NCBI GenBank assembly: GCA_963770565.1
Contig: CAVYQE010000006.1
Coordinates: forward strand, 131,395 to 195,394
DNA length: 64,000 bases
Direction: 5' to 3'
Source: an uncultured Actinomycetota bacterium
GTDB taxonomy: Bacteria > Actinomycetota > Actinomycetes > JAFAQI01
The position numbers were made by a program, and so were the translations under genes. Every line of letters begins with the position of its first letter. The first letter of the stretch is position 1. The notes beneath the pieces were generated by a model. The model made no database searches. It saw nothing but the letters and a program-made list of their open reading frames with translations, and was not told the DNA's origin. Shown piece after piece: positions 13,161 through 60,371 of this stretch.

Positions 13161-13186
13161 CCACGCGCGTCCCGCCCGCGGCTGCG

Positions 13187-13347
13187 ATGGCGGTTTAGCA
13201 ACGCTAGAGCGTGGTTATCCCGCCATGGGCGTGGCCAACCCGCTACGCCGGCGCGGCCCGTGTCCCGCCGTCGGTTTCTATGGCCGTTTAGCAACGCTAG
13301 AGCGTGGTTATCCCGCCATGGGCGTGGACAACCCGCTACGCCGGCGC
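13187..13347. repeat. Two tandem ~68-bp palindromic (REP-like) units, 93-bp period
   Basis: GTTTAGCAACGCTAGAGCGTGGTTATCCCGCCATGGGCGTGG(C/A)CAACCCGCTACGCCGGCGC twice, between convergent genes. Confidence 0.85.
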
Positions 13348-38407: not shown

Positions 38408-41036
38408 TCATCGAGATGGGCCGAAGTCGCGGCCGCTCTCGCGGTCTCGAGATCGGTGGGCGGGCTCGTAGGGGTAGGCGGGTGCTTGGTCGCGGGCGAG
38501 GGCGTGCCGGCGGTTGACGCGAGCTGCTGGGCGAGCCGGCTGGCGACGTCGGTGGGGTCGGGTCCGAGCAGCTCGAACCGTGCCGGGGCTTTCCGGATGC
38601 CGGCCCGATCGGCGACGAGCGAGGTCGCGCTCGTGTAGAGGTGGTTGGCCTGCCGGCCGCGGGACAGCGCGACGTAGCCGGCTTGCTGACAGAGCGCGTC
38701 GGTGCCGTAGAGCAGCGCGACCTGGGTGGTCAGGCCCTGGGCTTTGTGGACGGTCATGGCGTAGCCGTGGTCGAGATGATCCGCGGCCCAGCTGGTCGGG
38801 ACCGTGATGGCCGTTCCGGTTTCGGTGCGCAGGCGTCAGCTCGCGGTCGGTGGCGCGGGTCAGGGTGGCCCGGGTGCCGTTGAGCAGCCCGCGCGGATGG
38901 TCGTTGCGGGTGACGATGACCAGGTCACTGGGCGCGTACTGGCCGGCCGTCGCGCCGCTCGCGTGGTGGTGTCGGGGCCGAGCCGACCGGCGGCGCGTAG
39001 CTGCGCGCGGATCGCGGTGTTCAGCGCCGTGGCGTCGGCCGGCTGGAGGCGAGCGCGACCACGGCGTAGGGGTCCGGATGGTCGACGCGGTGGTCGAGGT
39101 AGTCGTCGGCGAGCTGTTGCCGGCGTCCGGCGCCGTGGTGGCTCGAGGTGGATCCGGCCGTTGCGAGGTAGGTAGTGCGGAGCGCGGGTCGATCTCCCGG
39201 TCGCGCAGCAGGTCGAGCGCGGCGCGTTCCCAGTCCGCGGTCTGCCGCTGGTTGCCGGTCAGCGACAGCGGTTGGCGCGGTGCGGGCGAGCGCGGCGAAC
39301 AGCCCGCCGGCGTCGATCTCGGGCAGCTGCGCGGGGTCACCGACCAGCACGAGCTTGCCGCCGGCTGCCTCGACGTGCGTCAGCAGTCGGCTGAGGTGGC
39401 GGGTGCCGACCATCGACGCCTCGTCGACCAGCACCACCGACCGTGGCGCGAGCCCGGCTGGCTTGCCGGTGCGTCGGGTCGGGGCGGTCAAGGTCGGCGA
39501 GCAGCCGGGCGATCGACGAGCTCGGGACGCCGGTGGCCGCTTCGAGGCGTCGGGCGGTGACCGCCGCGAGCGAACACCCGACGACCGGTATGCCGTCGCC
39601 GTGCCAGGCGTCGGCGGCGGTGCGCAGCGCGGCGGTCTTGCCGGACCCGGCCGGTCCGATCACCACGTCGACCAGGTCGGGCGAGGCGAGCAGCCCGGCG
39701 ACCACGGCCGCTGCTCGACCGACAGCCCGTGCTGACCGGCGACGTCAGCGACGGTGGTCGGTGCCACGGCGCGGTGCGTTCGAGGGCAAGCATCGATCGC
39801 GGCGTCTCTCGGCTGCGAGCAGATCCCGGGTCGACCATCGCCGGCCGCCGTCACGGTCCGCCGGCTGCAGCAGCGGCGATCGCCTCGGCGTGGGCGAGGA
39901 GCCGGTCGGCGGTCGCCTCGAGCTGCGCGGCGGTGACTCGCGACGCCGGCCGGGAGGGTTTCGGTGAGTGCCTGGATGACGTCGCGGCGGTCGAACGAGG
40001 TCTGCGCGTTCGGTCAGCCCGTCCGGACCGAACAGCTCGACGCCGACCCGCTCGAGGTCCGGCAGTGCCGGTGCGACGGTCCGCTGCGTGACCAGCGCGA
40101 TGGTCGACGCGGCCGGGTGGCCGAGCTGTCCGGCACGCGTCGGCCCACTGCTGGCGCAGCGACGCTTGCGGGGTGTGGGACTTCACCGGGCGGGTGACGT
40201 ACGCGGCGCGTTGCGCGGCCTTGCGGCCGCGGGTCCCGGTCCGGTCGAGCTCGGCCTCGATCTCCCGTCGCCGGGTCGAGAACTCCTTGACCAGCACCTT
40301 CGGGATGCCGGCGATCTCCGCGACGCCGCGGCTGACCGGCCCCCAGCCGACACCGAGGGTCCGGGTGAGCTCCCCGCGTAGCACCGCCTGGTAGACGCAG
40401 CCGGCGGTGCGGGCCTGGCGGTGCATCGCCCGGGAGTCCACCGCGGACCATTTCCCGTCCACACCGTGCACCAGATTCGCGATCACCAGGTGGGTGTGCA
40501 GCTGCGGGTCATCCGACCGTGAGGTGTGATGGGTGAACCCGGCGGCGATCAGCCCCTCGGTTTCGACCCGGGCTGCGCGCTGATCACCGCCCTGATGTCC
40601 GCGCAGACCCGTGGCCGGCGTGCCGGTCCAGATACCCCAACGCCTCGTCGACCGCCCGGTCATGTGCCGCGAGCACCGTGGCCGCGACCTGTGGGTCGGC
40701 GAGACCGAACAGCACCGAGGCGCTCTTCGGGGCCGAGACCACGACGTCCAACCCGGACCGGCGAACATCGACCGGTCCATCCGGGCCCGCGCGCAGCACC
40801 GGGCGGGCCACCACGGTGCCGTCCGGGAGGGCACCGTCAAGCAGCCGCGCGAACACCTCCGCGTTCCCGGCGCCGACCGGCCCGTCGAGACCAAGAGCCT
40901 GCGCACCGCGACCGCACCACCGGCCGACCTGCTCTGCCTCGCCGGTGTAGTAGGCGACCTGGGCGCACTCCGCGGACCGCTCCAAGTAATACGCGGCGCT
41001 GACGGTGCCACCGCGAAGCATCCCGATCGAGATCAC
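38408..41036 (-). pseudogene. MobF (TrwC) relaxase-helicase, multiple frameshifts
   Basis: AAYYLE, DVVVSAPKS, FTHHTSRSDDPQLHTH, GPAGSGKT, VLVDEASM, VGDPAQL, TVHKAQG spread over several frames. Confidence 0.88.
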
Positions 41037-42381: not shown

Positions 42382-42504
42382 CCGAAGAGCGGCATCGCGG
42401 AGATCCGTCGACATCGTTGGGTGAGCGAGAACGGCACCTATCGCGCGGTACAGAAGCCGATTGGTGAGAGCCAACCTTCAGAGGCTTGACTACGTCACAC
42501 TGTC

Positions 42505-43110
42505 ATGATGCGCATCACGTCGGTGGCGGCCGCATGCGTCGCGGTGTGGCTCCTCACCGGGTGCTCGGGATCGGCGTCGGGACCGACCCAGACGCCGCCA
42601 ACGTCGACGCCACGGGCCACGACGGCCCGGACAACGGCACCCGTTGGCCTCGTCGATACGCCTCTGTCGAGGTGTGCTCCGGCGGTGGTCGCGATCACCA
42701 TGGATGCCACTGGGCACGTTGTCGACAATCACGAATCGGCGTACGTCCTCGGATTCCGCAACCGTTCGCGACGCGCCTGTGCACTCCAGGGCTACCCGTA
42801 CCTGCGCCTGACACGTACCTCCGCACCACGTTCATGGACTCGCGTTCACCCATCCACAAGGTGGCCATACCCGCCGATCGTCGCTGGCGCCACGAGCGCA
42901 CTCCATTCCGAAAGCGTGGCCGTCGCGGCGGGCGGCACCGCCTACGCCTATCTCATCGTTGACCGGGGAGCGGAGTGTGGCGCTAGCCTCTCGGCCGATC
43001 TGCGCGTCGGAACTTCGCGGGCCTCGGCATCCCTGATCGCAAGGAGGAATGTCGGCGTCTGCCGTGGCGACCTGATCGATCTATCGCCCTACACCGAACT
43101 CCGCGGCTGA
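42505..43110 (+). CDS. DUF4232-like lipoprotein
   Basis: Lipobox LLTGC, Pro/Thr linker, FRNRSRRACALQGYP. Confidence 0.75.
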   Translation: MMRITSVAAACVAVWLLTGCSGSASGPTQTPPTSTPRATTARTTAPVGLVDTPLSRCAPAVVAITMDATGHVVDNHESAYVLGFRNRSRRACALQGYPYLRLTRTSAPRSWTRVHPSTRWPYPPIVAGATSALHSESVAVAAGGTAYAYLIVDRGAECGASLSADLRVGTSRASASLIARRNVGVCRGDLIDLSPYTELRG

Positions 43111-43159
43111 GCGATCCATACCGCGAGTTCGAGTGCTATGTATCGGCGCTTCGGCGTGC

Positions 43160-43579
43160 CTACCCAACGGGGCAGATCAGGACGACTCGCGCGACGTGAC
43201 CCGCCACCACGTTGACACGCTGGGGAGGCGTGGGCCCAACATGACACGGCAACTTCTTGAGCGCGATCGCGCTCAATGCGTAGCGACCGGGTCGGAGCGC
43301 GAAGTGGAACCTGCCGGTCGTGTCGGCGTGTGCGGAGGCGACGACGCGCCCGCCAATCGTGTGCAGCCTGACCGTAACCACGCCCGGTAGCGGGCCGCCC
43401 GAGCCACCATCCGGCCCGGCTCCCGCTCTGAAACTACCAACGACAGTGCCGAGCGCAGGGCTGGTTGGTTCGGCGACAGGGCTCGAAGCGGGCGCGGCTG
43501 CGTGAGTGCAACCAGCGACCAGCGCGGCCGCCGCTGTGGCGGACGCGGCCCATCCAACCCTCACTCGCATGGTCTTCAT
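43160..43579 (-). CDS. Lipoprotein with carboxypeptidase-regulatory-like (prealbumin-fold) domain
   Basis: LVAGC lipobox; ADTTGRFHFALRPGRYAL. Confidence 0.7.
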   Translation of the reverse strand: MKTMRVRVGWAASATAAAALVAGCTHAAAPASSPVAEPTSPALGTVVGSFRAGAGPDGGSGGPLPGVVTVRLHTIGGRVVASAHADTTGRFHFALRPGRYALSAIALKKLPCHVGPTPPQRVNVVAGHVARVVLICPVG

Positions 43580-43620
43580 GGTGATACGACGCCCCGTGCC
43601 GGTCAATCGTTCCCCAGCGG

Positions 43621-43648
43621 CGCGGACAGAACGCCGGTTATGGTCGCT
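43621..43648 (+). other. dif-like site (left of SIR2-like gene)
   Basis: CGCGGACAGAA-CGCCGG-TTATGGTCGCT. Confidence 0.55.
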
Positions 43649-43809
43649 TTCAGATCGGCGGCGGCCAACGGCTGAAGCCGGCCTGTGTCATTCCGTGGGG
43701 TCTGTCATGCTCGTCGATCTCCTCGTACCTGATGACGCTCCTGTGGGCCGGCACGCCAGAGCCGGCAAAGCAGCCGGGTCGCATTACCACCAAAAGAAAT
43801 GACTGGCCG

Positions 43810-45013
43810 TCAGGGCAGGTCGACGTGCTCGATTGGCTCCTCGGAGAAGTCGCCTACTTCAGGGTCGCGCTCCACCCATGGCGCTTTACCCGCCAAGACC
43901 AAGTCGATCGCTGCCTCACTCTCACCCGGCCGCGCCGAGAACAGACCCGAGAAGCAACTGCCAAGCAGCCTGTAGCGATTGAACTTCGAGGTAGGCCACA
44001 GCTGATCAACTGTGTGCTTGGCGGCATCCTCGCTTTCCGCAACGACCGTCACTGGGGTCGAGTGCCGGATCGTCTCGTGCAGGAGCCGCAAGAAATGACG
44101 CTCGGCTCCTCGCCATCCGATGACGAGAACCTCGGTAGCTTCCGCGATCGCGACCCTCATGTGCTCGATGTGGACCGCAGGTGCCTCGTATTCCTGCTTA
44201 TGGACGGTCGGGATCGCAAGCGCTGGAATCCATATCGCGGTACTTCCGCTTCGATCTGATGTATCGATTGGGCCTGCCCAATCCCGAATCGCATAGTGGT
44301 TCCTCACCGGTTGGATCGTCGCCAGCTAGACAATCAATCAATGTCGTTCTCGGCCTGCACGCCGCCGTCATCGCCGTAGGACCGGGCCGCTGCCAATCGT
44401 CGGAATGCACGGCTGCCTTGCGAAGCCAGTTCACCGATCCGTGTGGTTTGAAGAGTTGGGAGTCGGGCCGGGACGTGTAGTCCTCGATGGTGCCGAACCT
44501 GGCGTGCAGCACGTCCGTCAACGCGCGGTCGATCAGGGTGTCGTAGTTGAAGGTCACTATGCGGACTGGAGTTGCTCGGGCGGTCTCGTGGTAGTGGCGT
44601 GCGAGCCGGTCGATGAGCGTGAGGTAGTTGGTGACGTGATTGAGTTCCTCGCGCCAACGCTCCTCGACACCACCGATGGTCCAGCGCAGGTAGTACCGGA
44701 TGGCCGCGAGTTGAGCGTTGGCTTCCGAACCGAGGAATCGCTCGTCGCCGAGGCGCCCTAGACCGTCCTCGACCGAAATGCCCTCCTGTACCCAGGCGCG
44801 AAGACGGTCGACGGCCGGAGCGGCGCGCGGGTATCGAGCAATTGCCTCAAAGTACGGCGTTTCGGACGGATGCCACTCGAACAAATCCTTGGCTAAGGGT
44901 GGCCTGTAGTACTCGAAGTCTGCGCTGACGGCGTATCGCCCATTGCCTTCGATCGGGAACTCCCGGCCGCCGTCGTAAGAGGCTCCCGCACCTGCGATGA
45001 CGAGCAAAGTCAT
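43810..45013 (-). pseudogene. SIR2-like (SIR2_2) NADase-domain protein, split by one frameshift near 44260-44310
   Basis: VIAGAGASYD, IVTFNYDTLID, LFKPHGSVNW in ORF 44198-45013; IPALAIP and VLVIGWRG in ORF 43810-44307. Confidence 0.8.
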
Positions 45014-45213
45014 ACCGCAATCGTGTCACCCGGGGACGACACGTTCCGTCAGCTGAGCGCAGACGCGGCGGCGAGGTCACGCAGCCGAGGGTCGAGCGGC
45101 GGCGCCGGTTGTTGAGCGCACTTGAAGATCGGGGGTCGCTCGGCGCGGGATTGTGAACCGGTCGAACCGGCGCGGGTCTATGGAGTTGCCCCCGCCGTTA
45201 GCGTGTCGACCGA

Positions 45214-45241
45214 ACCGAACATAACCGGCGTTATTCGACGG
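45214..45241 (-). other. dif-like site (right of SIR2-like gene)
   Basis: Minus strand CCGTCGAATAA-CGCCGG-TTATGTTCGGT. Confidence 0.65.
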
Positions 45242-45275
45242 CCTGTCCGAGCCCTCTGGCTGCGAGGATGAGGTC

Positions 45276-45650
45276 ATGCCCCGTCTCACGGTCGTCACAT
45301 CGTTGTCGGATCGGGAGTTGAACGGGCCGACTGCTGAGGATGTCATTGCCGCTATCCAGGCACTGCACGGTGACGGCGAAGTCGGACTCGGAGAGCCCAC
45401 CTCCATCTGGCTTGGTATCGCCGGTGGCCCCGACCGCTACTTCGTCGCTTACGCAGACGCACACGCTGGACTGACCTTGCAGGCGCGGACCGAGACGACC
45501 GGCGGACAGCCCGTCGAGGCCCTCATTGGCGGCCAGTCGACGACATTGCCGCCCGCGTACCTCGTGTCCATCGACGTGGCAACGTCGGCGGCGCTGCACT
45601 TCCTGGAAACGCAGGAACCTGCACCGGCCGTCACGTGGGACCGGATGTAG
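45276..45650 (+). CDS. Imm1-like immunity protein
   Basis: IGGQSTTLP...VSIDVA..AALHFLETQEPAPAVTW C-terminal pattern, recalled from the Imm1 family. Confidence 0.65.
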   Translation: MPRLTVVTSLSDRELNGPTAEDVIAAIQALHGDGEVGLGEPTSIWLGIAGGPDRYFVAYADAHAGLTLQARTETTGGQPVEALIGGQSTTLPPAYLVSIDVATSAALHFLETQEPAPAVTWDRM

Positions 45651-45705
45651 GAGAAGTGCCTGTTCGCGATCGCGTTTCGCTTCGGAAAAGGGCAGGATCT
45701 ATCTC

Positions 45706-46044
45706 ATGCGCCCACTCTCCGAGGTCGAGCGTGAGGTCCTGAATGTGATGCTTGCTGGGGACTTCCCCGGCGCATTCGAGTTACGTGGCCAGGTGGACGC
45801 GGCACGCGTGTCGCGTCGATGCGATTGCGGCTGTCCGTCCGTCGACCTGGTGGTCGAGGGCGACGTTCCGCTAGCTCCCGTCGTGAGCCGCACGCCGGTC
45901 AATGCCAATGTCGATGGGGTTCTTGGGGGCGGGCTGATCGTCTTTGTCGATGATGGCCGGCTGTCGGGCTTGGAGTACTACACCTCCGAGGATCAGACAC
46001 CTGGCTCATTCCCCGACCTGGGTCAGATCCGGCCTTACTCCTAG
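45706..46044 (+). CDS. Small hypothetical protein with CxCGCPS motif
   Basis: MRPLSEVER...CDCGCPSVDL...IVFVDDGRLSGLEYY. Confidence 0.75.
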   Translation: MRPLSEVEREVLNVMLAGDFPGAFELRGQVDAARVSRRCDCGCPSVDLVVEGDVPLAPVVSRTPVNANVDGVLGGGLIVFVDDGRLSGLEYYTSEDQTPGSFPDLGQIRPYS

Positions 46045-46196
46045 CAGCGCCGAAGTGCCGTTCCGCGACGTACAGTCTCGGCGCTACGTCACATCCCGTC
46101 GCTGGGCATTGTCGGAGCCGCAGAGGTCCGGACACGGCTTGGTTGGCCACGGTCGCGGATCGGGACGGGGCGCTTCCGGTTGAGTTGTCCTTTCTA

Positions 46197-47582
46197 CTAC
46201 CCGGATGCGGCGGTGCATTGCGTCCAAAGGGCGCTTTGGCTGCCGGGCTTGGCTGTGGAAACGCCCAGCGCGAGGACGGTCTGGTCGTTGGCGACGGTGA
46301 TCGCGGACAGACCGCCGGGCAGTGTGACCGGTGCTGAGTTCGCGGGCGTCGTCCAGGAGGTGCCGTCCCAGTGCATCAGGAGCGGGCCATGCTGGGAGCC
46401 AGCGACCCATAGGTCGCGATCGGTGACGGCGCTGAGGCCGTTCAGCGTCGCGGCGGTGGACAGGACGGTGTCCCATCGCGTTCCGTTCCATCGCATCACC
46501 GAACTCGGACCTTGCCCACCCCAGCGCGTTCCGTTGGGCGAGGTGGCCAGGGCGGGGCGACGGATCGCAAAGACGCTGCGTCCTGCGGAGGAGATGGCGT
46601 CCAGCGGGACGGAACCCGTCGGGGTTGGTTCGTCGACCCAGTTGTTGCCGGTCCACGTGCCGAACAACGCGCCGTCGAAGCTGAAGCTCTCGCCGCCACC
46701 GTGCAGGTGGCCGCCCACCGCCCACGGGAATCCGGTGGCAGGGTCAATCGCGACTGCGGTGAGCAGTGAGATGGAGCCGAGCCCGGACGTTGAGGAGGGC
46801 TCCGGAGCCGCGACACGAGTCCAAACCTGACCGTTCCAGTGCAAGAGACGGTTCACGTAGGTGGCGCCGTTCACAGACGCGTTGCCGACTGCCCACACGT
46901 CATCCGATGACGTACCGGCGACACCGACGAGGGTCTGTTCGTGGTGCCGGCCAGCATTGGCCAAGGCAGGGACCGGAGTAAGCGACCACGACACACCGTT
47001 CCAATGCTCAACCAGTGGCCCGTTGCGCATCGTCGGGGTCTCAGCTTCAACGCCGCCGACCGCCCATGCATCGGTCGAGCTAATGACCGTGATGTTGTAC
47101 AGCGACCCCGGTAAACGGTTCGGGTTCCCCACCGGCACGACCGTCCACGCCCGGCCGTCCCAATGCTCGATCAAGGGGTAAGGCACCTGGCGCGGTCCCG
47201 AACTGTAGGGCGAATCCACCCAACGCTCACCCACCGCCCAAACGTTGCTTGAGGAGGCCGCCCCGATCGCGAACAGGCGATGCTGGCGATCCCCAGCAGC
47301 GAACGGCTCCGGCGCGAAATGCCAACCCGATCGACACGCCACGATCGGCGGGGACACCTGGTGTGTTGGTCCTGGGTTGTCGCGGAGCGCCAGAGGCACG
47401 AGAACCACCGCGACCGCCGTAATGACAGCGGCGACCGCACAGACGGCGAGCGTCTGCTGTCGGCGCCCCCGCCCCCGCCCGCGGCTAGCAGCGACGATCC
47501 GCGCCATCGGATCGGGCCAGGTCGGCAGCGCCCAGTCGTCGTCGTGGAGGACCCGGCGAAGCCGGTCGTCGAGATCGGTCAC
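46197..47582 (-). CDS. Membrane-anchored beta-propeller protein, probable anti-sigma partner
   Basis: DLDDRLRRVL N-terminus, single TM, WAVG / HWNG repeats; coupled to sigma factor by ATGA overlap. Confidence 0.75.
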   Translation of the reverse strand: MTDLDDRLRRVLHDDDWALPTWPDPMARIVAASRGRGRGRRQQTLAVCAVAAVITAVAVVLVPLALRDNPGPTHQVSPPIVACRSGWHFAPEPFAAGDRQHRLFAIGAASSSNVWAVGERWVDSPYSSGPRQVPYPLIEHWDGRAWTVVPVGNPNRLPGSLYNITVISSTDAWAVGGVEAETPTMRNGPLVEHWNGVSWSLTPVPALANAGRHHEQTLVGVAGTSSDDVWAVGNASVNGATYVNRLLHWNGQVWTRVAAPEPSSTSGLGSISLLTAVAIDPATGFPWAVGGHLHGGGESFSFDGALFGTWTGNNWVDEPTPTGSVPLDAISSAGRSVFAIRRPALATSPNGTRWGGQGPSSVMRWNGTRWDTVLSTAATLNGLSAVTDRDLWVAGSQHGPLLMHWDGTSWTTPANSAPVTLPGGLSAITVANDQTVLALGVSTAKPGSQSALWTQCTAASG

Positions 47583-48106: not shown

Positions 48107-48403
48107 ACCCGCCTCCGATACCCCTTCACCTACGATGAGCCATCGGAGCGTCGAACGGTTGTCACACCCACCAAGATTTCTTCCAAAAGCGACACGTCCG
48201 CGCTGTCGTCAAAGGACGCGAAGCAGTCCTTCGATGCCTCTCGAGCATTGTTGTGACCGTCGGTTAAGTGCCGATATCGTCCGCGACGATGGTCGGCACC
48301 GTGCCGCAGAGGTGATGCCATAACGGAGCGGGGCCTCCCGCTCCTGTGAGTACCGCAGGAGACTGCGGTTGCTCATAAACCCACATGGTGAGGGAGGCCA
48401 CCA

Positions 48404-49450
48404 ATGAGTGACGGTATCGCTAGGAAGAAGCAGTTCGTCGGCGTCGACCTGCATCTGCACCGGTCGGTGATCGTGCGGATCGACAACCGCGGTCGCGAGC
48501 TCGAGTGCGTGCGGATCGACAACTCTGTGTCCGGCCTTGTCGCTGAAGTGGCGAAGGCTGGGCAGGGTGCGCCGGTCGCGATCGAGGCGACATATGGCTG
48601 GTACTGGGCGGTCGACGCGTTGCAGGCGAAGGGTTTCGAGGTGCATCTCGCGCACCCGTACGGGATGAAGCAGATGCGGAAGCGGCGCCGGGTGAAGACT
48701 GACCATGCGGATGCGCTGGAGTTGGCGCGGCTGATGCGGCTTGGTTCACTGCCGGAGGCCTACATCGCCCCGGTCGAGCTTCGGGAGCTGCGGGAGCTGG
48801 TCCGCCACCGCCAGCAGCTGACGAAGGTCGCGACCTCAACCAAGGGCGGGATCCGCGCCGGGTTGGCGAAGCACGGGATCCGTCTGCCGGTCAGCAAGCT
48901 GAACACGGTTGCTGGGTCGGATCTGCTCGATGAGCTACGGCTTCCGGGCTACTACGGGCAGCGGCTCGCCGCGCAACGCCGGATGATGATGCTCGTCGAA
49001 GACGAGCTGGCTCGGGTGGAGCGCGAGCTGGACCGTCGGTTGAAGACCGACCCGGACTACCGGCGGCTGCAGAGGATCAAAGGGATCGGTCCGATCCTCG
49101 CGGCGGTGTTCGTCGTCGAGATCGGTGATGTGAGCCGGTTCCGCAACGCGGCCGCGATCACCTGCTGGGCCGGGCTGACTCCACGGGTGCATGAGTCCGA
49201 CCGGCGCCGACACGACGGCTCGATCAGCAAGGAAGGCTGCGCCCTGGTCCGGTGGGCCGCAGTCGAATCGGTGCAACGCCAATGCGAACCAGTCATCCGA
49301 GCCGTCCGGGACGACATCCTCGCCCGCCGCGGGAAGAGAGCGAAGAACACCGCGAAAGTCGCCGCCGCCAGGCGGATGCTCGAGGTCGTCTACTACACGC
49401 TGCGTGACGGTGAGGCCCGTTGCCTGACCAAGCCGGTCGCCGCCGCGTGA
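48404..49450 (+). CDS. IS110 family transposase
   Basis: VGVDLH, IEATYGW, KTDHADA, IKGIGP, AGLTPRVHES. Confidence 0.95.
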   Translation: MSDGIARKKQFVGVDLHLHRSVIVRIDNRGRELECVRIDNSVSGLVAEVAKAGQGAPVAIEATYGWYWAVDALQAKGFEVHLAHPYGMKQMRKRRRVKTDHADALELARLMRLGSLPEAYIAPVELRELRELVRHRQQLTKVATSTKGGIRAGLAKHGIRLPVSKLNTVAGSDLLDELRLPGYYGQRLAAQRRMMMLVEDELARVERELDRRLKTDPDYRRLQRIKGIGPILAAVFVVEIGDVSRFRNAAAITCWAGLTPRVHESDRRRHDGSISKEGCALVRWAAVESVQRQCEPVIRAVRDDILARRGKRAKNTAKVAAARRMLEVVYYTLRDGEARCLTKPVAAA

Positions 49451-49815
49451 ACACCGTCAAGACTTCGTGCGGGTCGAAGTAGCGGCATGACCCACCCTCG
49501 GGTGCGGTCGACGAAGTGAATGACCCCACGACCCTGGAACCCAGGGACGCTCGCACGGCTTCATGCTGACCACCACGTCGCGAAGGGATGCCTGACAGCA
49601 AACTGGCTGTCGCCGAGCTCTGCCATTTCAAACTGAAGCCGAACCTGACAACCACATAGCGACGCCGGCAACACAGTCTGCGTCAACCACGAGACGGCCT
49701 CAACACCGTTCGTCCTCGCGCTCCGCGCTCCGGGCGCTGCGTGTTGACCCCGCCCCGCGATCGACGCCGCCCTTGATCTGCCGACCATCGCCGAAGAACG
49801 CTCAAAACAAACAGT
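49451..49815 (+). ncRNA. Candidate bridge/seekRNA in the IS110 right non-coding end
   Basis: ~380 bp structured non-coding end with AGCGGCAT (49481) and AGGGATGCC (49584), matching target and donor junction. Confidence 0.55.
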
Positions 49816-49870
49816 TGACGGCCCCACTCCGTTCAGGGATGCCGTTCTTCGATGGAGAGCCCTGGCGCTA

Positions 49871-52753: not shown

Positions 52754-52798
52754 CCGCGCAGAGGTGCCGTTTACCTATGCCGACCGTCCGCCTGTCAA

Positions 52799-53262
52799 GG
52801 GTTTGTGTTCTTTTCGTTCTTGTTCTTCGGCGTCGTTCTCGCAGGCGCGTTCCTTCTGGCGGGCGGAAACGGGGTCAAGGTGGAGCGCCCTACTGGACGA
52901 ACGACCTTGACGCCGGCGCCGCCCACCAGATTCTTGTGCGCTGAGAAGAACGCCAGGTGTTTGTTCGTTAGCGCATGGCGTGTCCTCACCGGTCGTGGGT
53001 CTGATTGTGTCGACGGTTGACGGTGAGAGCGCCGCGGGCGCCCAGGCTTACCTTGGCGCGCGGGCGCGTGCTGCGCCCGGTCACAAGAGGAGTGATGGGG
53101 TGCCCCGCGACGGGCATGAGGGTGCGGCCGTTCAATCTAGTACGGGTCGTCCAGCCGGGGCTGGCGAACAACGGCATATTGGGAGCTGGTCGCACCGGTC
53201 CCTAAGGTCCTCGGTGGTGGGCTGGTAGGCGGACACGGTCACCGTCCCTCGTCGTTGGTTTG
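52799..53262 (-). ncRNA. Candidate bridge/seekRNA in the IS110 element 2 non-coding end
   Basis: ~490 bp non-coding end downstream of tnp; minus strand contains ATGCCGTT (53170-53177), resembling the target. Confidence 0.45.
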
Positions 53263-54294
53263 CTAGGTGGGAATCTCGATCCAGGCCTGGTCGCCGAGCG
53301 CACGTAGCCGGTGGTGACAGCGGCGTGCGAGTTTACGGGCGACCGACAGCCGCGCTCGACCGCCACCGATGCGATGAGCCAATCGCAGGTAGTAGCCGTT
53401 GTCCGGGCTGGTCTTCTTGTGGGCATGCAGCGCGCCCTCATAAAGCGCCCAGCGCAGCACTGGTGGTCCTTGGCGGGTGAGCCTCGGGCGGCCACGGTTC
53501 TTGCCGTCGGAGTCATAGACGGAGATGTCCAGTCCGGCGTGACGCACCGCTTGTCTAGACGCGGAGAACCGGCGGGTGTCGCCGAGTTCTTCCCAGACCA
53601 TCGTGGCGAGCAGCGCACCCAACCCGTACTCATGAGACAGCTCCCGCGGTCCGGGATGACGGCGACCAAACGCGGTGAGCTCCGCGCGCAGCGGCACCAG
53701 ATCGGCGTCGATCGCCGCGATCATCCGCACCGCCACGTCAACAGCCTGCGCGCCGGCCGGGGACAGGTCCGGATCGTCAAGCCCGATCTGCACCCGGTCT
53801 CCTCGCAACAGCTTGCCGTCAGGCTTGGGCACGCCCTGATGAAAGAAAGTGGCGTGGATCCGTTTCTGCCATGCCTGCTTGCCCTGGACCAAATCCAGAT
53901 ACAGCCGGACCTTCTCCCGGATCTCCAGGACCTGCCGCGGCGGGATCCACGAGTCGTGGATCTCACCCTTCTCCAGTTGCTCCCGAAGCTTGCGTGCATC
54001 GATCCGGTCGGTCTTCGCCCGCTGCTTACGGCTTCGTGCACCGGCCGCCTCGGCCGGATCAGCGACATGCACCTCGGCGCCAGCGGCGAGACATTCCTCC
54101 GCGATGAACCGCCAACCGGTGCAACCCTCCACCACCAGCTCGACCTTCTTCTCATCGAACTGAGCGAGCCACTTACGGAAACCGACCCGGTCCGCCGGGC
54201 TGATCCGACCCCGCCCAGACTCCCCGTTATCGCAGTCCACCCAATCGAAGGTGATCTGTTGCCGATGAATGTCCAACGCTCCTACGATCGCCAT
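53263..54294 (-). CDS. IS110 family transposase
   Basis: GALDIH, VEGCTGW, KTDRIDA, AGLDISVYDS; GGAGG RBS. Confidence 0.93.
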   Translation of the reverse strand: MAIVGALDIHRQQITFDWVDCDNGESGRGRISPADRVGFRKWLAQFDEKKVELVVEGCTGWRFIAEECLAAGAEVHVADPAEAAGARSRKQRAKTDRIDARKLREQLEKGEIHDSWIPPRQVLEIREKVRLYLDLVQGKQAWQKRIHATFFHQGVPKPDGKLLRGDRVQIGLDDPDLSPAGAQAVDVAVRMIAAIDADLVPLRAELTAFGRRHPGPRELSHEYGLGALLATMVWEELGDTRRFSASRQAVRHAGLDISVYDSDGKNRGRPRLTRQGPPVLRWALYEGALHAHKKTSPDNGYYLRLAHRIGGGRARLSVARKLARRCHHRLRALGDQAWIEIPT

Positions 54295-54423
54295 ACCCGG
54301 ACCTCCTCCAGCTCCTGTTCGAGAACTGCACCTAGCGCAGATCCTTCTCTGTGCGGAGGGGGTCCGGCATATGTCCGTTACTTCACATGGTTGACCCTGC
54401 AAACAATGCGTGAGTAGCGGCAC

Positions 54424-54744
54424 CTATTCGACGCCCTGCCAGGTGATCAGAACGGCGTTGCCGCTTCGGTCGGGTCGACGTAGCGCGGCGAGTGCAGCCG
54501 TGCGCGCCTCCTCCACGTCGTTGTTACCCGACGGTCGGTAGTCGCTCCATGCAGTCTCAAAGAAGTTGCCCTGGTCGTCGTATTCGCGCAGGTCGAGTCC
54601 CAGAACCACCAGACCCGTGTCGGCCAGCGCGTTGATCGCACGTTCGGCATTCTGCGCGTGCCACCAGACTTCGCCGTTGGCGTCCACGTTCGCGGCGGCG
54701 GCAACCTCGTGTGGAAGAGAAGCCAGATCGTCGACGGTGGACAC
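54424..54744 (-). CDS. Small hypothetical protein, Imm40-like by eye
   Basis: GEVWW...AINAL...VVLGLD pattern; TAGCGT 6 nt upstream of GTG. Confidence 0.6.
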   Translation of the reverse strand: MSTVDDLASLPHEVAAAANVDANGEVWWHAQNAERAINALADTGLVVLGLDLREYDDQGNFFETAWSDYRPSGNNDVEEARTAALAALRRPDRSGNAVLITWQGVE

Positions 54745-54785
54745 GAGTGCACGCTAACGCCGGGTCTCGCGTGCGCGAACGGCAC

Positions 54786-55004
54786 CTATTCGCTCGACGC
54801 ATCCTCGACCGCGACCACGTCCTCGGCGTCAAACGGGAGTTTCTCGAAGCCCGCAACCCGAATGATCTCGTGGCCCCACGCAACGGTCACATTGTCGAAC
54901 GTGCGGCCATCTGTGAGCGTGACCCTGATCGTCTGCGCTCCCATGTGAGTTTCTGGAAAACAACTCACCGCTTCGCCCAGATCCTGCGGCAGTCGATTGG
55001 TCAC
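54786..55004 (-). CDS. Small hypothetical protein (72 aa)
   Basis: PETHMGAQTIRVTLTDGR; TAG inside a repeat site; AATAGT 6 nt upstream of GTG. Confidence 0.65.
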   Translation of the reverse strand: MTNRLPQDLGEAVSCFPETHMGAQTIRVTLTDGRTFDNVTVAWGHEIIRVAGFEKLPFDAEDVVAVEDASSE

Positions 55005-55101
55005 GCCGTCACTATTGCGGATCTTGGCTTGTTGAGCCAATGCACGGTAGCGCCGGCTCGGCACGGATCGTTCGGGGCCGCTCCTGCGAACAGAGTGGAT
55101 C

Positions 55102-56847
55102 TTATTGTCCGTTGCCGTCCGTCCTGATCCACGCCGTTGGCAGTTCCCCATGAACGAGAAGCCCGTCGCCAACACGTAGGCGTCGTAGTAGGTCGGCCGG
55201 CGCGTACGGCACTGAGGTCGCGACCCGCTGCGCTTCCTGCCCGCCACCCGGATCAAGCAGCTGAGGACGCGTTAGGTCAGCACGGACGTGTTCGTTGCCA
55301 ACGAGAACGCTCAAGTAGTCGGTGGTCGTCGTGTCGGTCAGCCCACTGGGATAGAACAGCTTGCTTCGGTGGTTGGTCAGGACGCTGTCGGCATCACGGC
55401 CGTAGGCGGTGTCGAGCTGTGCCCGTGATTGCCACACGGTAACGAGTTGGATACCGGCCCCGCTGACGGTGGCTGCCCACTGCGGGAGCTTTGGTAGTGG
55501 CGTGTTGGCCGCTTCGTCGCAGACGACGAGCAGACGTGGGTCGAGCGGCGTGCCGCGACGGTTGTACGCCGAGAACGCGTCGCTGATCAGGTCGTGCAGG
55601 ACCGCAGCGAACACCAGGCCGATGCGGCTGTCGTCGCCGAGGGGCGCGACGAGGTAGAGCGTGTTGGTGCCGGCGAGCAGCCAGTCGAGGGTGAGCTGAC
55701 AGTCTTCCGCACTGTCGGCGATCACCGGATCAGCCCAGGGCCAGACGGCGTTGCGGGCGGTGGCGTAGACACTGCTGGTGGTGCGCGGGTCGCTGCTCCA
55801 CTGGCCATGCAACCAGCCTTGGACTTGGGTGGCGGCGAACGCGACCTGCGGATCATCGTGGTCGGTGAGCAGCCGGACCAATGGTGCAAGGGTGCCGCCG
55901 CTGCCGTCGCCGGGCCGGTCCAGGTCGAGTACCCACCGGACGACGTGACGCATCGTGTGGCCGTCGGTGTTGGCTGCGGTGTAGAGCATGCCGGCGAGGA
56001 GCTGTTCGGCTTGGCCCCGCCAGAACCGGTCACCGGCCGTGCTGTCGTCGGCTCCGGTGCGGGCGAGGATCGCGGCCGCGTTGACGGCACCGGACAGCGT
56101 GCGGGCGGCGCGTAGCGGGCTCCACGTGCTGGACGGGTAGCCAGTGACGCCGAGCGGGTCGAACACACGGACCTCGCCGATGCGCTGGCGGGCGTCAATG
56201 GTGGCGCGAAGCAGGTCGGCTTTGACGCTGGAGACGATCGCCGGGCCGGTCCAGGCGCTGACGCCAGTGATCAGGCCGGTGGTCTTGCCGGACTGGCTAG
56301 GTCCGAACACGGCGACGGCTCCGGCGACACCGCGTCGGCCGCGGTGGCTGGACGCTTCCGTGGACAGGTAGCCACGGCCGTGACGGGCGAGCACGAACCG
56401 GTTCGGTTCCGGGCGCCGGGCGTAGAGCGGGGTGAGGTCGCGGCGGGTGGCGAGCCGCGGTTGGGTCGGTACCCCGAGGCGGCGCCGCTTGTCGATCGGG
56501 ACCTGCCGGTTGCGACTCACCAACGACAGCACGGCGAACCCGGCAACGGTGAGTGCTGCGAGGACGAGCGCGGTGGCGATCCAGTACAGGACGGGCCCGG
56601 GCAGGTTTCCGCGTACCCGCACCGGCCAAGCGACAGCAGGGTCGCCGAAGTGGTGAACCAGCCTGGGCAGGGAGCGGACCGCGTCGACCGGGCTGGCGTG
56701 CAGCAGCCTCGCGCGGCCGAGCAGCGCGGCGAGGGTGCCGATCAGCCATTGCACGAGGCCGATCGCGAGGACCGCACCGAGGAGAAGCGCGATGGTTAGA
56801 TCGATCCCATCGGCGCCCCTGGACCGGTTGGCCGTGGAGCGGGTCAT
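55102..56847 (-). CDS. TraG/VirD4-family type IV coupling protein
   Basis: 2 TM, GPSQSGKT, SSVKAD, VFDP, WSPL, DEAAN, WQSRAQL. Confidence 0.9.
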   Translation of the reverse strand: MTRSTANRSRGADGIDLTIALLLGAVLAIGLVQWLIGTLAALLGRARLLHASPVDAVRSLPRLVHHFGDPAVAWPVRVRGNLPGPVLYWIATALVLAALTVAGFAVLSLVSRNRQVPIDKRRRLGVPTQPRLATRRDLTPLYARRPEPNRFVLARHGRGYLSTEASSHRGRRGVAGAVAVFGPSQSGKTTGLITGVSAWTGPAIVSSVKADLLRATIDARQRIGEVRVFDPLGVTGYPSSTWSPLRAARTLSGAVNAAAILARTGADDSTAGDRFWRGQAEQLLAGMLYTAANTDGHTMRHVVRWVLDLDRPGDGSGGTLAPLVRLLTDHDDPQVAFAATQVQGWLHGQWSSDPRTTSSVYATARNAVWPWADPVIADSAEDCQLTLDWLLAGTNTLYLVAPLGDDSRIGLVFAAVLHDLISDAFSAYNRRGTPLDPRLLVVCDEAANTPLPKLPQWAATVSGAGIQLVTVWQSRAQLDTAYGRDADSVLTNHRSKLFYPSGLTDTTTTDYLSVLVGNEHVRADLTRPQLLDPGGGQEAQRVATSVPYAPADLLRRLRVGDGLLVHGELPTAWIRTDGNGQ

Positions 56848-59232
56848 GCGATCTCGGGTGCGGCGAGGATGTCGATGGCGGCGGTTTTCGCTCGGCTGGT
56901 GTCGAGCGCGGCGATCACGTGGGCGAGGTCGTGGGTGCCGTCCTCGCCCACGTCGAGGCTGCTGGTGACGGCGTAGAGGTGGTTGTGCTGGCGGCCGCGG
57001 GTCAGTCCGGTGTAGCCGAGCTCGGCATACAGGGTGTCATCGCCGAGGAGCAGCGCGACGTCGCAGGTCAGTCCTTGCGTCTTATGGACGGTACGGGCGT
57101 AGGCGTGGCTCAGGTGGTCGGTGACGTAGTCCATCGGGACTTCGAGTTCACGGTCGCCGATCCGGACCCGGAGGGCGGGGTGGTCGGCCGCGATGCCGGT
57201 GATGACACCGAGGTCACCGTTGATCAGCCCGAGGTCGTAGCGGTTGCGGCCGGCGAGGACCGGTTCGCCGACGCAGATATCGGCGGTCGTCGACGAGGGC
57301 GACGAGCGGCCCAAGTTGCCCGGATGCTTCGAGGTGGTGGTGCGCGCGGCGGTTGAGATCGGCCGCGTCGGCGCGGCGGACGGCACCCATGACAACGTCC
57401 GAGCCTGCGTCGCGGTGGGTGAGCCAGTCGGTGACCATTTGGTCGCGGAGTGTGTCGCTGTTGGCCGCGACCGTGACCTTGCCGCCGCGGTCGAGATGCC
57501 GGACAGCGAACCGGGTGTGACCGTGGCGCAGCGCGGTCACGGCGAGTCGTTCCTCCGGGTCGTGCTGGCGGCGGTTGTCGACCAGCTCGACACGCGGGCC
57601 GCGGTTCGCAAGGGCGGTGAACAGGCCACCGGCTTCCACCGCGGGCAGTTGTTTGGGGTCACCGACCTGGATCAGCTTTGCGTCGGCGCGTGTGGTCTCG
57701 GTGGCGAGACTGGCCAGCAGCCGGGTGCCGAGCATGCCAGCCTCGTCCACGACTAGCACGTCACCGGGCCGTAGCCGGATCGTCCCGGTGGCTAGGGCCT
57801 GGTGGAGGGCGTGGGCGGTGGTGGCAGGGATGCCAGATCCGGCTTGCAGCTCGCGGGCGGCACGAGCCGCGGGTGCGGCGCCGATGACCCGGTGACCGGA
57901 TGATTCGAATGCGTCGCGCACGGCGTCGAGGGCGAACGTCTTGCCAGTACCGGCGTGCCCCACGACAACATCGATGCGCCGGCCGCTGCCGCATAGCGCC
58001 TCGACCATGCGTCGCTGCTCGGCGGACAGTGATGGACGGTCCGCGATGGCCGCGGTGACTGCCTGCGGGTCCGCGGTCAGCCGGGAGGCAGCTTGCTGCT
58101 CGGCGAGGGCGACGACGCGGGCTTCTAGCTCGAGGATCTCCGGCGTGGTCCACCGGTTCTCGCCGAGTGGGATCGCGAGGTCACCGGCGAGGTAGGCGTC
58201 GGCGCGGTCGAGGATGTCGGTGACGGTCGCGCCCTGCCGGGCGGCTCGGGCAACGGCACGGATCACATCGCCGCGGTCGTAGCTGGCATGCTCACTCGTC
58301 ACCGCGACAGCGACGTCCTCGTCGCCGGCCCGCAAGGTTGGGGTGCGAGGGACGCGGACCACATGGGAAAGGTCGAACCGGGCATCCAGCGCCCGAGAGC
58401 GCCACTCGGCCCGCAACTCGGTCTCGGAGACGCCCTTCGGTTTCGGTTTGCGGCTGGTGAGCGTGGCGATCCGGGCGGCGCGGCCGCCGTGCGCTCCGAG
58501 CCGGTCCATCTCTTCGACGATCTCGGCCCGGCGGCGGGAGAACGCGCGGCGCATCGCCGGGGAAATGCCGGCGATCTCGGCGACGCCGTGCCGGTCGATC
58601 TCGTCGAACACGACCCCGAGCCGCACGGTCAGCTCGCGGCGCAGCGCGGCTTGGAAGATCGCCTCGGCGGTGTACCGCTGGTCATAGAGCAGCCGGGCGT
58701 CCAACGCGGTACGCCGCCCGTCGGGGCCTTCGGCGACGTTGAACACGACCCAGTGCAGGTGGATGCCAGGGTCGCCCAGCCGGCTGGTCCGGTGCCGGAA
58801 CACCGCCCCGAGGAACCCCGTGCCGGGTTCGGTGCGCTCACCGGCGTGCCCGCGCCGGACCGCGCAGGCGGTCTGCTCGAGATAGATCTCGACCTGATCC
58901 CGTGCCGCGTACAGCGCGGCTTCGACCTCGGCGGCGTCATGCTCGGAGCCGAGCGCCCACAGCAGCGACACCGACTTCGACGGTGACAGGGTCAGGTCGA
59001 ACCCGGTCACTGTCGTGGCATGTTCGGTGAGCCGGCCACCGGCCGGGTGGTGGCCGGCGAACGCCGCGGCGAGCGCCTCCCGGCCGGCTGGACCGGTCAG
59101 CCCATCGGCCGCGGCGAGAGTCCCGACCCAGGCACCGGGCGCGGTCCCGGCCTCGGAGAGGTAGTCCTCGCGGCCGTCGATGACCTCGCGCTCGTAGTAG
59201 CCGAGGTTCTGGCACTTGCCGATCGACAGCAC
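56844..59232 (-). pseudogene. MobF (TrwC) relaxase-helicase with a single frameshift near 57280
   Basis: MLSIGK..YYE, DLTLSPSKS, HRTSRLGDPGIHLH, GHAGTGKT, DEAGM; C-terminal TVHKTQG in the next frame. Confidence 0.9.
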
Positions 59233-59347
59233 GAGGTGGCGTCCTCACCTTCAGGTGCATCGGTGTGGAGGTTGCTGATCTGTCCGGCGGTCACGCTGCG
59301 GGAGGGATCGAGAGGCCGCCGCGAGGCGGCCGGATGGGAGCCGCGGG

Positions 59348-59581
59348 TCAGGTTGCGGGCTGCGCCTCGGGGGCGGGCCGGCTGGGCAGGACGCGTTCGA
59401 TGAACGCGGCCAACGCCGCGCGCGGGACGCGTTTCTGGCAGCCGAACCACACGAACGGCAGCCCGGACTTGCCGCCCGACCGGTCGTATTCGACAGTGAG
59501 CTCATACACCTTCGACCGGCCCAGCTGCAGGACGGCCGCAGCCTGAGCCACCGTAAGGAACGGGGGGAGATCGTCTAGCAT
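59348..59581 (-). CDS. Excisionase / HTH_17 protein
   Basis: FLTVAQAAAVLQLGRSKVYEL...KRVP; GAGGTG RBS. Confidence 0.85.
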   Translation of the reverse strand: MLDDLPPFLTVAQAAAVLQLGRSKVYELTVEYDRSGGKSGLPFVWFGCQKRVPRAALAAFIERVLPSRPAPEAQPAT

Positions 59582-59672
59582 CACGTCACCTCGCTGTACT
59601 TCACAACCGTGGGGCAATGTCGCTATCATAACAACACGGTTGTCAAGTACAACGTGAACGAGTGGAGGATCT

Positions 59673-60371
59673 GTGGCGCGACGACGCGCACCCGAGAAGG
59701 ACGCACCGTCCAGCTCGCCCGGCGGCCTGGATGTGAACGCGGTCGTCTCCTACAACCTGCGCACCATCCGGCAACGGCAAGGCTGGACCCAGGAAGGTGT
59801 CGCGCAGCGGCTGGCGCAGCTGAGCGGGCACGAGTTGCCGCAGGCGTCGATCTCGGCGATGGAACGCGGTTTCGAAGGTGGCCGGCGCCGCCGCTTCGAC
59901 GCCCACGAGCTGTACCTGCTCTCCGTCGTGTTCGGCGTCCCGATCGTCTACTTCTTCATCCCGCCACCCACCGAGGAGCGCGAGGACCGCTCCCTCGCTG
60001 ACACCGGACAACCGGTCAGTGATCTCTACGCCGCGTTGCTGGGCGCGGACGACCAGCTCGCCGAAGTTGACCAGCGGCTCACGGACCTGGGCCGAACGAG
60101 TCCGGCCGAGGCCGAGATGACCCTGGCGCTCATCTACGGCCCCGAGGGCGGCCCGGTCCGTGACTGGTACGCCGCGTTCCGCACCTGGCGCAAGCGCCGA
60201 CTGCTCGCCCTCGCCCGCGACCACGGCGACCGGCTCGAGGACATCGCCGAGTTCCTCACCACCTTCGGCACCGAACTCAAAAACGTCGGACCCCAGGCCT
60301 ATCTACAGATGAAAGCGCACCGCGCCGGCGAAGACGTGCTGCCGGCAGCCATCGAACCCGAGGAGGGATAG
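59673..60371 (+). CDS. XRE-family HTH regulator, divergent from xis
   Basis: NLRTIRQRQGWTQEGVA...SISAMERG. Confidence 0.85.
   Translation: MARRRAPEKDAPSSSPGGLDVNAVVSYNLRTIRQRQGWTQEGVAQRLAQLSGHELPQASISAMERGFEGGRRRRFDAHELYLLSVVFGVPIVYFFIPPPTEEREDRSLADTGQPVSDLYAALLGADDQLAEVDQRLTDLGRTSPAEAEMTLALIYGPEGGPVRDWYAAFRTWRKRRLLALARDHGDRLEDIAEFLTTFGTELKNVGPQAYLQMKAHRAGEDVLPAAIEPEEG

Follow-up and report, generated by a model that had tools for sequence, protein, structure and literature searches.

A decayed SIR2-like gene module between inverted, probable tyrosine-recombinase sites in an uncultured soil actinobacterium

In Acinetobacter, small accessory-gene modules known as dif modules are bounded by inverted 28-bp sites with an arm-centre-arm layout, and one module can be found in different contexts, with the breaks falling at the sites. 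Other systems built on recurrent sites include the integrons, in which attC clusters without an integrase illustrate that orphan sites can outnumber the enzyme, and the R64 shufflon (recombinase Rci, sites sfx), the asymmetric sites of which combine a conserved centre and one conserved arm with a variable other arm and occur in inverted pairs. Here we analysed 64,000 nucleotides, hereafter the window, from an uncultured Actinomycetota bacterium (assembly GCA_963770565.1, contig CAVYQE010000006.1, positions 131,395 to 195,394), in which a broken SIR2-like gene lies between two inverted sites. An earlier note on this DNA had interpreted the locus as a pdif-like module, mobilised or inverted by Xer recombination. 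This interpretation is partly supported by our results, since the pdif analogy suits the architecture of the locus, but neither its enzyme nor its relation to dif.

Like the Acinetobacter dif modules, the locus consists of a small accessory-gene module between inverted 28-bp arm-centre-arm sites, and this module recurs in other contexts, the breaks falling at its ends. Besides, neighbouring blocks alternate between outer and inner arms facing inward, comparable to the C and D modules named in PMC13141974, and insertion sequences adjoin the sites, comparable to those of Acinetobacter in PMC10132070. Unlike the Acinetobacter modules, the system described here belongs to a different phylum, its sites are not copies of the host dif, a dedicated Xer-related recombinase occupies a module of its own, and direct arrays of sites also occur. 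The dif-module literature that we found, in the form of listings and abstracts, concerns Acinetobacter, with no report on Actinobacteria or on dif-type modules elsewhere.

We consider it probable that the SIR2 module is bounded by inverted core sites of about 28 bp for a tyrosine recombinase, and that the same family of sites flanks an Xer-related recombinase in soil Actinomycetota. This reading builds on the observed sites, their family, the homology breakpoints and the occurrence of the module in a second context. Site 1 (43621-43648, + strand) consists of the outer arm CGCGGACAGAA, the centre CGCCGG and the inner arm TTATGGTCGCT, and site 2 (45214-45241, - strand) of the outer arm CCGTCGAATAA, the same centre and the inner arm TTATGTTCGGT. 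Both 28-bp strings are present as the earlier note had written them, the sequence it described as common to both is an exact inverted 13-mer, AACGCCGGTTATG (43630-43642, +; 45220-45232, -), and the inverted-site observation is real. In the genome (4.43 Mb), exact copies of AACGCCGGTTATG occur at these two positions only, and its matches number 6 at up to one mismatch and 87 at up to two. Counted inward, the repeat matches at 18 of 20 bases, against one of six in the outer arms. The two sites are intergenic and close to promoters, site 1 being located upstream of a lipoprotein gene and site 2 between the divergent starts of the SIR2-like gene and an Imm1-family gene. With both 13-bp cores included, the module spans 1.6 kb (43630-45232).

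The homology of the locus to other DNA ends at these sites. The neighbouring block that ends in site 1 (segment A, 42435-43637) is near-identical to C2:463604-464805 on another contig of the genome (2 substitutions in about 1200 bases), and this homology stops at ...GGACAGAACGCCGG, exactly after CGCCGG (43637/43638). Past the breakpoint the window reads TTATGGTCGC and C2 reads CTAGGTCCGGG, and the C2 copy of segment A adjoins a recombinase module. In a contig of metagenome run X1, identity to the window covers 43200-43637 and gives way to a third sequence, CTCGGCGTGATTCG..., which resembles the inner arm of two further sites in this genome; a contig of run X2 terminates at 43637. Segment A is thereby seen with three different partners at 43637 (window, C2, X1). 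In another soil metagenome (run X4), seven contigs, about 90-95% alike, cover 43630-45227 and nothing outside, and their loose ends of 35 and 199 letters are unlike the flanks in the window, with the switch at 43630 on the left and at 45227, inside the centre of site 2, on the right. All breaks coincide with the 6-bp centres or miss them by a few bases at most. The metagenome data comprise four runs, all as contigs of low depth, each with at most 17% of the sampled words. The proposal that the sites delimit a discrete unit is borne out by the X4 contigs, in which the unit has other flanks, and we conclude that the module between the two sites is a discrete one that was formerly mobile.

The sequence AACGCCGG-YTADGKTCSG is common to five related sites of the genome. 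Among them, S3 (C2:462600, +) and S4 (C2:463610, -) form a 19-bp inverted pair that encloses a pseudogene of about 1 kb with several frameshifts, encoding a tyrosine recombinase (Phage_integrase) of about 300 aa, and the fifth, S5, lies on contig C11. The left flank of S3 is 84% identical to that of S5, and the homology again stops at the site. One heavily frameshifted gene and one 5'-truncated fragment are the sole recombinase copies of the genome. With a 129-aa in-frame piece of the C2 gene as query, we found 279 related proteins at E<=1e-10, most of them about 300 aa long with Phage_integrase and SAM-like domains, named XerD or integrase by their sources and encoded mostly on short contigs. 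The query P0127 yielded 46 loci in species genomes, nearly all from uncultured Actinomycetota (Mycobacteriales, Frankiales, Sporichthyaceae, Nocardioidaceae), in which the recombinase units are compact (about 1.0 kb) and, in several metagenome-assembled genomes (MAGs), present in multiple copies (L015 and L023; L037, L042 and L057). These enzymes are neither XerC nor XerD orthologues, as P0127 scores 120.5 bits against the XerD cut-off of 329.6 and 114.3 bits against the XerC cut-off of 335, far below both equivalog thresholds. An identity as integron integrase is likewise ruled out by the scores of P0127 and P0172 on the model TIGR02249 (54 and 64 bits, cut-off 265). Two-domain enzymes of this kind are placed among the 'simple' tyrosine recombinases in PMC8138268, in the available passages of which a unit with the recombinase inside a module was not found; nor was a published description of such a system found in literature listings and abstracts.

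The recombinase genes themselves are bracketed by related sites. A simple search, covering 31 of 32 loci with enough flank, showed the gene to be enclosed by inverted repeats at a distance of about 1.0 kb, with matches of 20/20 (L018, the same sequence as on C2), 15/15 (L019), 22/23 (L028, a different sequence), 13/14 (L038) and 12/13 (L047), the remaining loci giving short matches only. Reading the locus ends and applying a loose pattern resolved two site types (alignment A1), a left type upstream of the gene, (G)ACCGAGCGGTAG-TGCCAG-CTCGG, and a right type, inverted and downstream of it, CTCGGTAA-TGCCGG-TTGCGTTCGGTGCC. Site 2 of the SIR2 module agrees with the right type at nearly every conserved position, and its outer arm CCGTCGAATA recurs as the outer arm of family sites in L020 and L056. 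Outer arms are conserved across genomes (CGGTAG, CGATAA, TCGAATAG), and all close recombinase relatives with both flanks visible lie between such sites. Based on this association, the enzyme for these sites is likely the dedicated Xer-related recombinase and not XerCD.

To derive a site model (R1), we used 30 sites that flank recombinase genes in other genomes, none of them from the genome studied here. In a search of the whole genome it places site 2 first (17.4 bits, E 0.018), and it also recovers window 55042-55070 (15.7 bits, E 0.062; third best in the genome), S3 (14.7 bits, E 0.124), C11:539036-539057, just upstream of an Imm1 paralogue (14.4 bits, E 0.159), and S4 (13.0 bits, E 0.478). 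Searched in the window alone, site 2 reaches E 2.6e-4 and 55042-55070 reaches E 8.9e-4. The latter is the third family site of the window (+ strand, GCACGGTAG-CGCCGG-CTCGGCACGG) and lies beside a coupling-protein gene. Over the recombinase loci (277 kb), R1 gives 46 matches at E<=0.05, several of which form arrays: four sites in one orientation, 669-957 bp apart, in L053, four sites each in L045 and L036, and three each in L052, L056 and L014. The genes between the sites are single accessory genes in mixed orientation, namely F420H2 quinone reductase, SnoaL-like, O-methyltransferase, cupin, GNAT acetyltransferase, MST/DinB, APH-like, beta-lactamase-like and zinc dehydrogenase genes. In a genome of the same genus, inverted family sites 1.9 kb apart (L062, G002:C9, 4212-6172; 22.5 and 16.4 bits) bracket two RidA/L-PSP genes and an unknown gene, so that inverted site pairs bound a module here as well as at sites 1 and 2 and at S3 and S4. 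The L062 pair is flanked by two IS110-family transposase genes on one side and by a DDE transposase fragment on the other.

These arrays invite a comparison with integrons, which resemble the loci of the other genomes in holding single accessory genes between repeated sites of the same orientation (L053, L045), and in which, as here, orphan sites outnumber recombinase genes. Unlike in integrons, the recombinase scores 54-64 bits where the integrase model requires 265, it is itself bracketed by sites, gene orientation is mixed, and the sites are about 28-41 bp long; a search of Rfam with L053, L036, L045 and L061 gave no match at E<=1 (with the presence of an attC model in Rfam left unchecked). 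The loci therefore do not have the integron layout of attC-type sites between co-oriented cassettes, and no platform of attI plus promoter was identified. The R64 shufflon is alike in the asymmetry and the inverted pairing of its sites, but it recombines alternative pilV ends, whereas the sites described here bracket complete genes that are unrelated and occupy different genomic contexts. Miniature inverted-repeat transposable element (MITE)-like derivatives of insertion sequences (IS) also share related inverted ends around either an enzyme gene or a passenger gene, and orphan copies that persist where the enzyme is absent or decayed. Unlike MITE-like elements, the modules described here lack a target-site duplication, involve a tyrosine recombinase, have conserved outer arms and show breaks in the centre.

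The cargo of the module is a SIR2_2-like gene (43810-45013, - strand), the only gene between the two sites. Its assignment, proposed in the earlier note, is supported by several lines: a Pfam PF13289 match of a fragment (E 1.7e-4, 22.2 bits against a cut-off of 24.5), matches to the SIR2 models of PADLOC down to E 7e-7, and, out of 1397 candidates, 279 homologues at E<=0.001 with lengths of about 340-400 aa, the majority of which carry PF13289. PADLOC gave no match on the neighbouring genes. The damage to the reading frame that the note had implied is also present: the frame changes twice between about 44390 and 44320, and the three-frame translation has a stop codon in the stretch between the changes, so that the gene is a pseudogene. 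The alignment of P0003, the closest homologue, runs in frame 0 up to ...DDWQR (66% identity), then in the third frame, and then in frame 1 (61%). Since duplicated segments of the assembly differ by substitutions and not by scattered indels, we take the frame breaks to be real. The X4 relative has one additional base at 44383 and a net gain of one at 44327-44339, which by arithmetic would rejoin the three pieces into one frame, and intact copies of the SIR2 module probably circulate. No partner gene of a known SIR2 defence system (HerA, Argonaute, TIR/SLOG or a DSR-type long protein) and no recombinase remnant was found in the module; compared with such systems, the effector domain is present and its gene is broken. 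A metagenome scan for the P0003 locus gave nothing, SIR2 relatives were not found in the 37 other genomes of the order with the query used, and in 40 related genomes the DNA of 42400-46100 had no relatives beyond short pieces; the flanks of homologues are therefore visible only through the X4 contigs. With the SIR2 gene and both recombinase copies broken, the system is a fossil in this genome.

An alternative, proposed in the earlier note, is a pdif-type module that the host XerC/XerD would have mobilised or flipped at dif-like sites carried on plasmids, and we regard this as unlikely. The motif ATAA-N6-TTATG occurs only twice in the genome, in site 2 and in ATCGCCGATAA-TGGACA-TTATGTCAAGT (C10:167842-167869). 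The latter is the probable chromosomal dif: it matches what we take to be the actinobacterial dif consensus, and lies 21 kb from an XerD-like gene (C10:146761-147660) and near the cumulative GC-skew maximum of contig C10. Host Xer genes are present (323 and 265 bits, the former being the score of the C10 gene on the XerD model), and the inner arm of site 2 shares 8 of 11 bases with the XerD-side arm of dif. Besides, in a survey of 38 genomes of the order (incomplete MAGs in which repeats are often unassembled, with 150 candidates scored per genome), sites at E<=0.05 were found in 30 and the recombinase in 8, as would be expected if a host enzyme were at work. On the other hand, the flanking sites are not close copies of the host dif: site 2 agrees with it at 14 of 28 bases, the left-type and family consensus at 10 of 28, no closer than chance, and site 1 with its arms at 5/11 and 6/11. 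The TTATG motif, which the note had described for both sites, is not kept in the family (CTAGG, TTAAG, CTCGG), R1 does not recover the probable dif at E<=10 in the whole genome, and for a mere cargo gene the constant position of close recombinase relatives between sites would be unexplained. The pdif-like reading thus stands in its architecture (inverted arm-centre-arm sites, breakpoints at the centre, other contexts), and its dif likeness and Xer dependence are not supported, given a probable dif that lies elsewhere and sites that are tied to a separate recombinase.

A non-autonomous transposon-like element with terminal inverted repeats of 13-20 bp, mobilised by the tyrosine recombinase of an autonomous member acting as transposase, is a rather unlikely explanation. 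The whole unit with its ends would then excise and insert at preferred targets, without reciprocal exchange in a shared centre. It would fit with sequence conservation that runs inward and not outward, with the left X4 boundary at 43630, outside the centre, with compact recombinase units that are multi-copy and on short contigs, and with two different units adjoining segment A at the same base. No target-site duplication is present, however, either at sites 1 and 2 (flanks GGACAG and ATTCGA) or at S3 and S4 on C2 (flanks GAAGGT and CTGTCC), none of these flanks forming a direct repeat. The conservation of outer arms across genomes is not expected for transposon flanks, the C2 and X1 breaks fall at the border of centre and inner arm and the right X4 break inside the centre, and solitary direct sites are arrayed between genes. 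An invertible on/off switch (phase variation), in which a flip of the segment would join the SIR2 gene or its neighbours to an outside promoter or part them from it, seems very unlikely. The inverted pairs at sites 1 and 2 and at S3 and S4 would allow only inversion in cis, and the recombinase lies inside its own invertible unit. The Hin recombinase likewise lies inside its own invertible unit. Yet no contig with the inverted arrangement was seen (contigs only, at low depth), the unit holds the whole gene with spacers of 200 bp and 170 bp, which a flip would not obviously part from its promoter, and a module with wholly different flanks points to movement and not to flipping alone. Finally, a chance inverted repeat or the operators of divergent promoters, without a role in recombination, can be regarded as highly improbable. 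The intergenic, promoter-proximal position of both sites would suit it, as would a control in which the real 64-kb window holds 16 distinct 13-bp inverted pairs 50-2000 bp apart, one of them being the ends of an IS630-type element. It is already contradicted by three independent homology breaks within a few bases of the centres, by the absence of the 13-mer elsewhere in the genome, by a model from other genomes that ranks site 2 first, and by the X1 and X4 contigs.

Several observations weigh against bounding of the module by sites of the recombinase family. With 16 comparable pairs in the window, the inverted repeat alone is no more than chance would give, and the reality of the sites therefore rests on the breakpoints and on family membership. 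Site 1 is a weak R1 match in the window (6.4 bits, E 0.95), the R1 E-values are rough by the tool's own statement, and 30 of the 46 R1 matches in the recombinase loci are training sites, leaving 16 new ones. The arrays elsewhere are mostly direct repeats, unlike the inverted pair of sites 1 and 2, and the right-hand site of the X4 contigs differs in its centre, which appears to be shorter. Recombination itself was not observed, the metagenome contigs containing no joint at the sites. To the order-wide excess of sites over recombinases can be added one genus (g6) with sites in 12/12 genomes and the recombinase in 0/12, and three recombinase-bearing genomes without a site match; this mismatch is compatible with the action of another enzyme or with a large number of orphan sites.

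Which enzyme acts on the sites, and how, is our inference. A core site would have a GC-rich centre of 6 bp between an outer arm that varies and an inner arm that is conserved, and the Xer-related recombinase, supplied in trans, would exchange strands in the centre of two sites. Exchange between inverted sites would invert the module, and exchange between sites on different molecules would lead to fusion and re-resolution, by which modules would swap neighbours as proposed for the Acinetobacter dif modules. More broadly, we put forward tentatively, as a possible if somewhat doubtful extension, an undescribed gene-shuffling system in soil Actinomycetota, in which an Xer-derived recombinase within its own module would move, invert and string together single-gene modules in trans. 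Such modules would be located on plasmids, conjugative elements and chromosomes and carry defence, detoxification, antibiotic-modifying and immunity genes, and the SIR2 block would be one decayed cassette among them.

If this holds true, site-bounded gene modules are not peculiar to Acinetobacter plasmids or to integrons, and a comparable system with its own small Xer-related recombinase, a functional counterpart of both, would be at work in soil actinobacteria that have not been cultured. This would account for the way in which single accessory genes change neighbours there, including the SIR2 candidate defence gene of the window and the acetyltransferase, phosphotransferase-like, beta-lactamase-like and DinB/MST genes of other genomes. 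The biology of the window itself is modest, because its SIR2 gene and recombinase are both dead. The site model provides a simple sequence signature for finding such modules, and the recombinase with its 28-41-bp sites forms a compact pair that is open to direct bench testing.

The earlier note had also linked the left arm of site 1 to a second site class with the centre GTGCCG, at 54416. The 9/11 likeness between the two arms is present, but the GTGCCG class consists at least partly of the ends of IS110-family elements. GTGCCG at 54416 is the transposase-proximal end of such an element (52759-54427, three genome copies), preceded by the arm-like GGGCGTCGAATAG, and the other end of the element also starts with GTGCCG. 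A second IS110-family element (48306-49852) likewise has three genome copies, and every copy of both follows an arm-like ...AGAG, ...ATAA or ...ATAG. Insertion of IS-A and IS-B into family sites was considered as a possible explanation of the GTGCCG class; after their removal in silico, the rejoined flanks score only 5.3, 4.3 and 1.1 bits (121 boundary choices each), and the idea is kept as a mere lead. Of the 46 recombinase loci, only one holds IS110 transposase genes, and a comparison of 45181-46200 with 54381-55200 gave no extended homology beyond the shared arm. A 66-bp miniature derived from both ends of the 52759-54427 element is found at C6:6160-6211 (G000), in a copy of the C2 insertion site that is 'empty' apart from it.

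The window forms the end of a 195-kb contig in which mobile DNA is abundant, including two TrwC relaxase genes, of which one is complete and the other fragmentary, a gene for a coupling protein, two elements of the IS110 family and one of the IS630 type. Segment A carries a DUF4232 gene (42505-43110, +) and the lipoprotein gene (43160-43579, -). The first gene of the next block, outside site 2, is the Imm1-family gene (45276-45650, +; Pfam PF14430, E 2.7e-6), which has a paralogue with 49% identity on C11, with the family site C11:539036-539057 (-) just upstream of it. The stop codon of a full-length TrwC relaxase gene on C11 lies inside a site-like string (C11:538990-539057; CCGTCGAATAG-GTCGTT-GTTATCG, opposite strand), and 40 bp further on there is a second family site, which immediately precedes the Imm1 paralogue and an MST/DinB gene. 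As a further sign of decay, the TrwC relaxase gene at 39851-41011 of the window is truncated and matches profile positions 127-283 only. A 455-aa tyrosine integrase with an arm-binding domain (60372-61739), near relaxase and coupling-protein genes, is probably the integrase of a conjugative element. The block 55053-60731 has a counterpart with 86% identity at C2:759842-765512, and a tandem duplication at 13166-13347 consists of two adjacent 89-bp copies that are 91% identical. About 8 kb from the C2 recombinase module, at L008 960-3384 (L008 being C2:452000-468000), a gene for a 530-aa protein with a Cas1 domain (E 3.7e-35) adjoins that of an NYN-domain protein.

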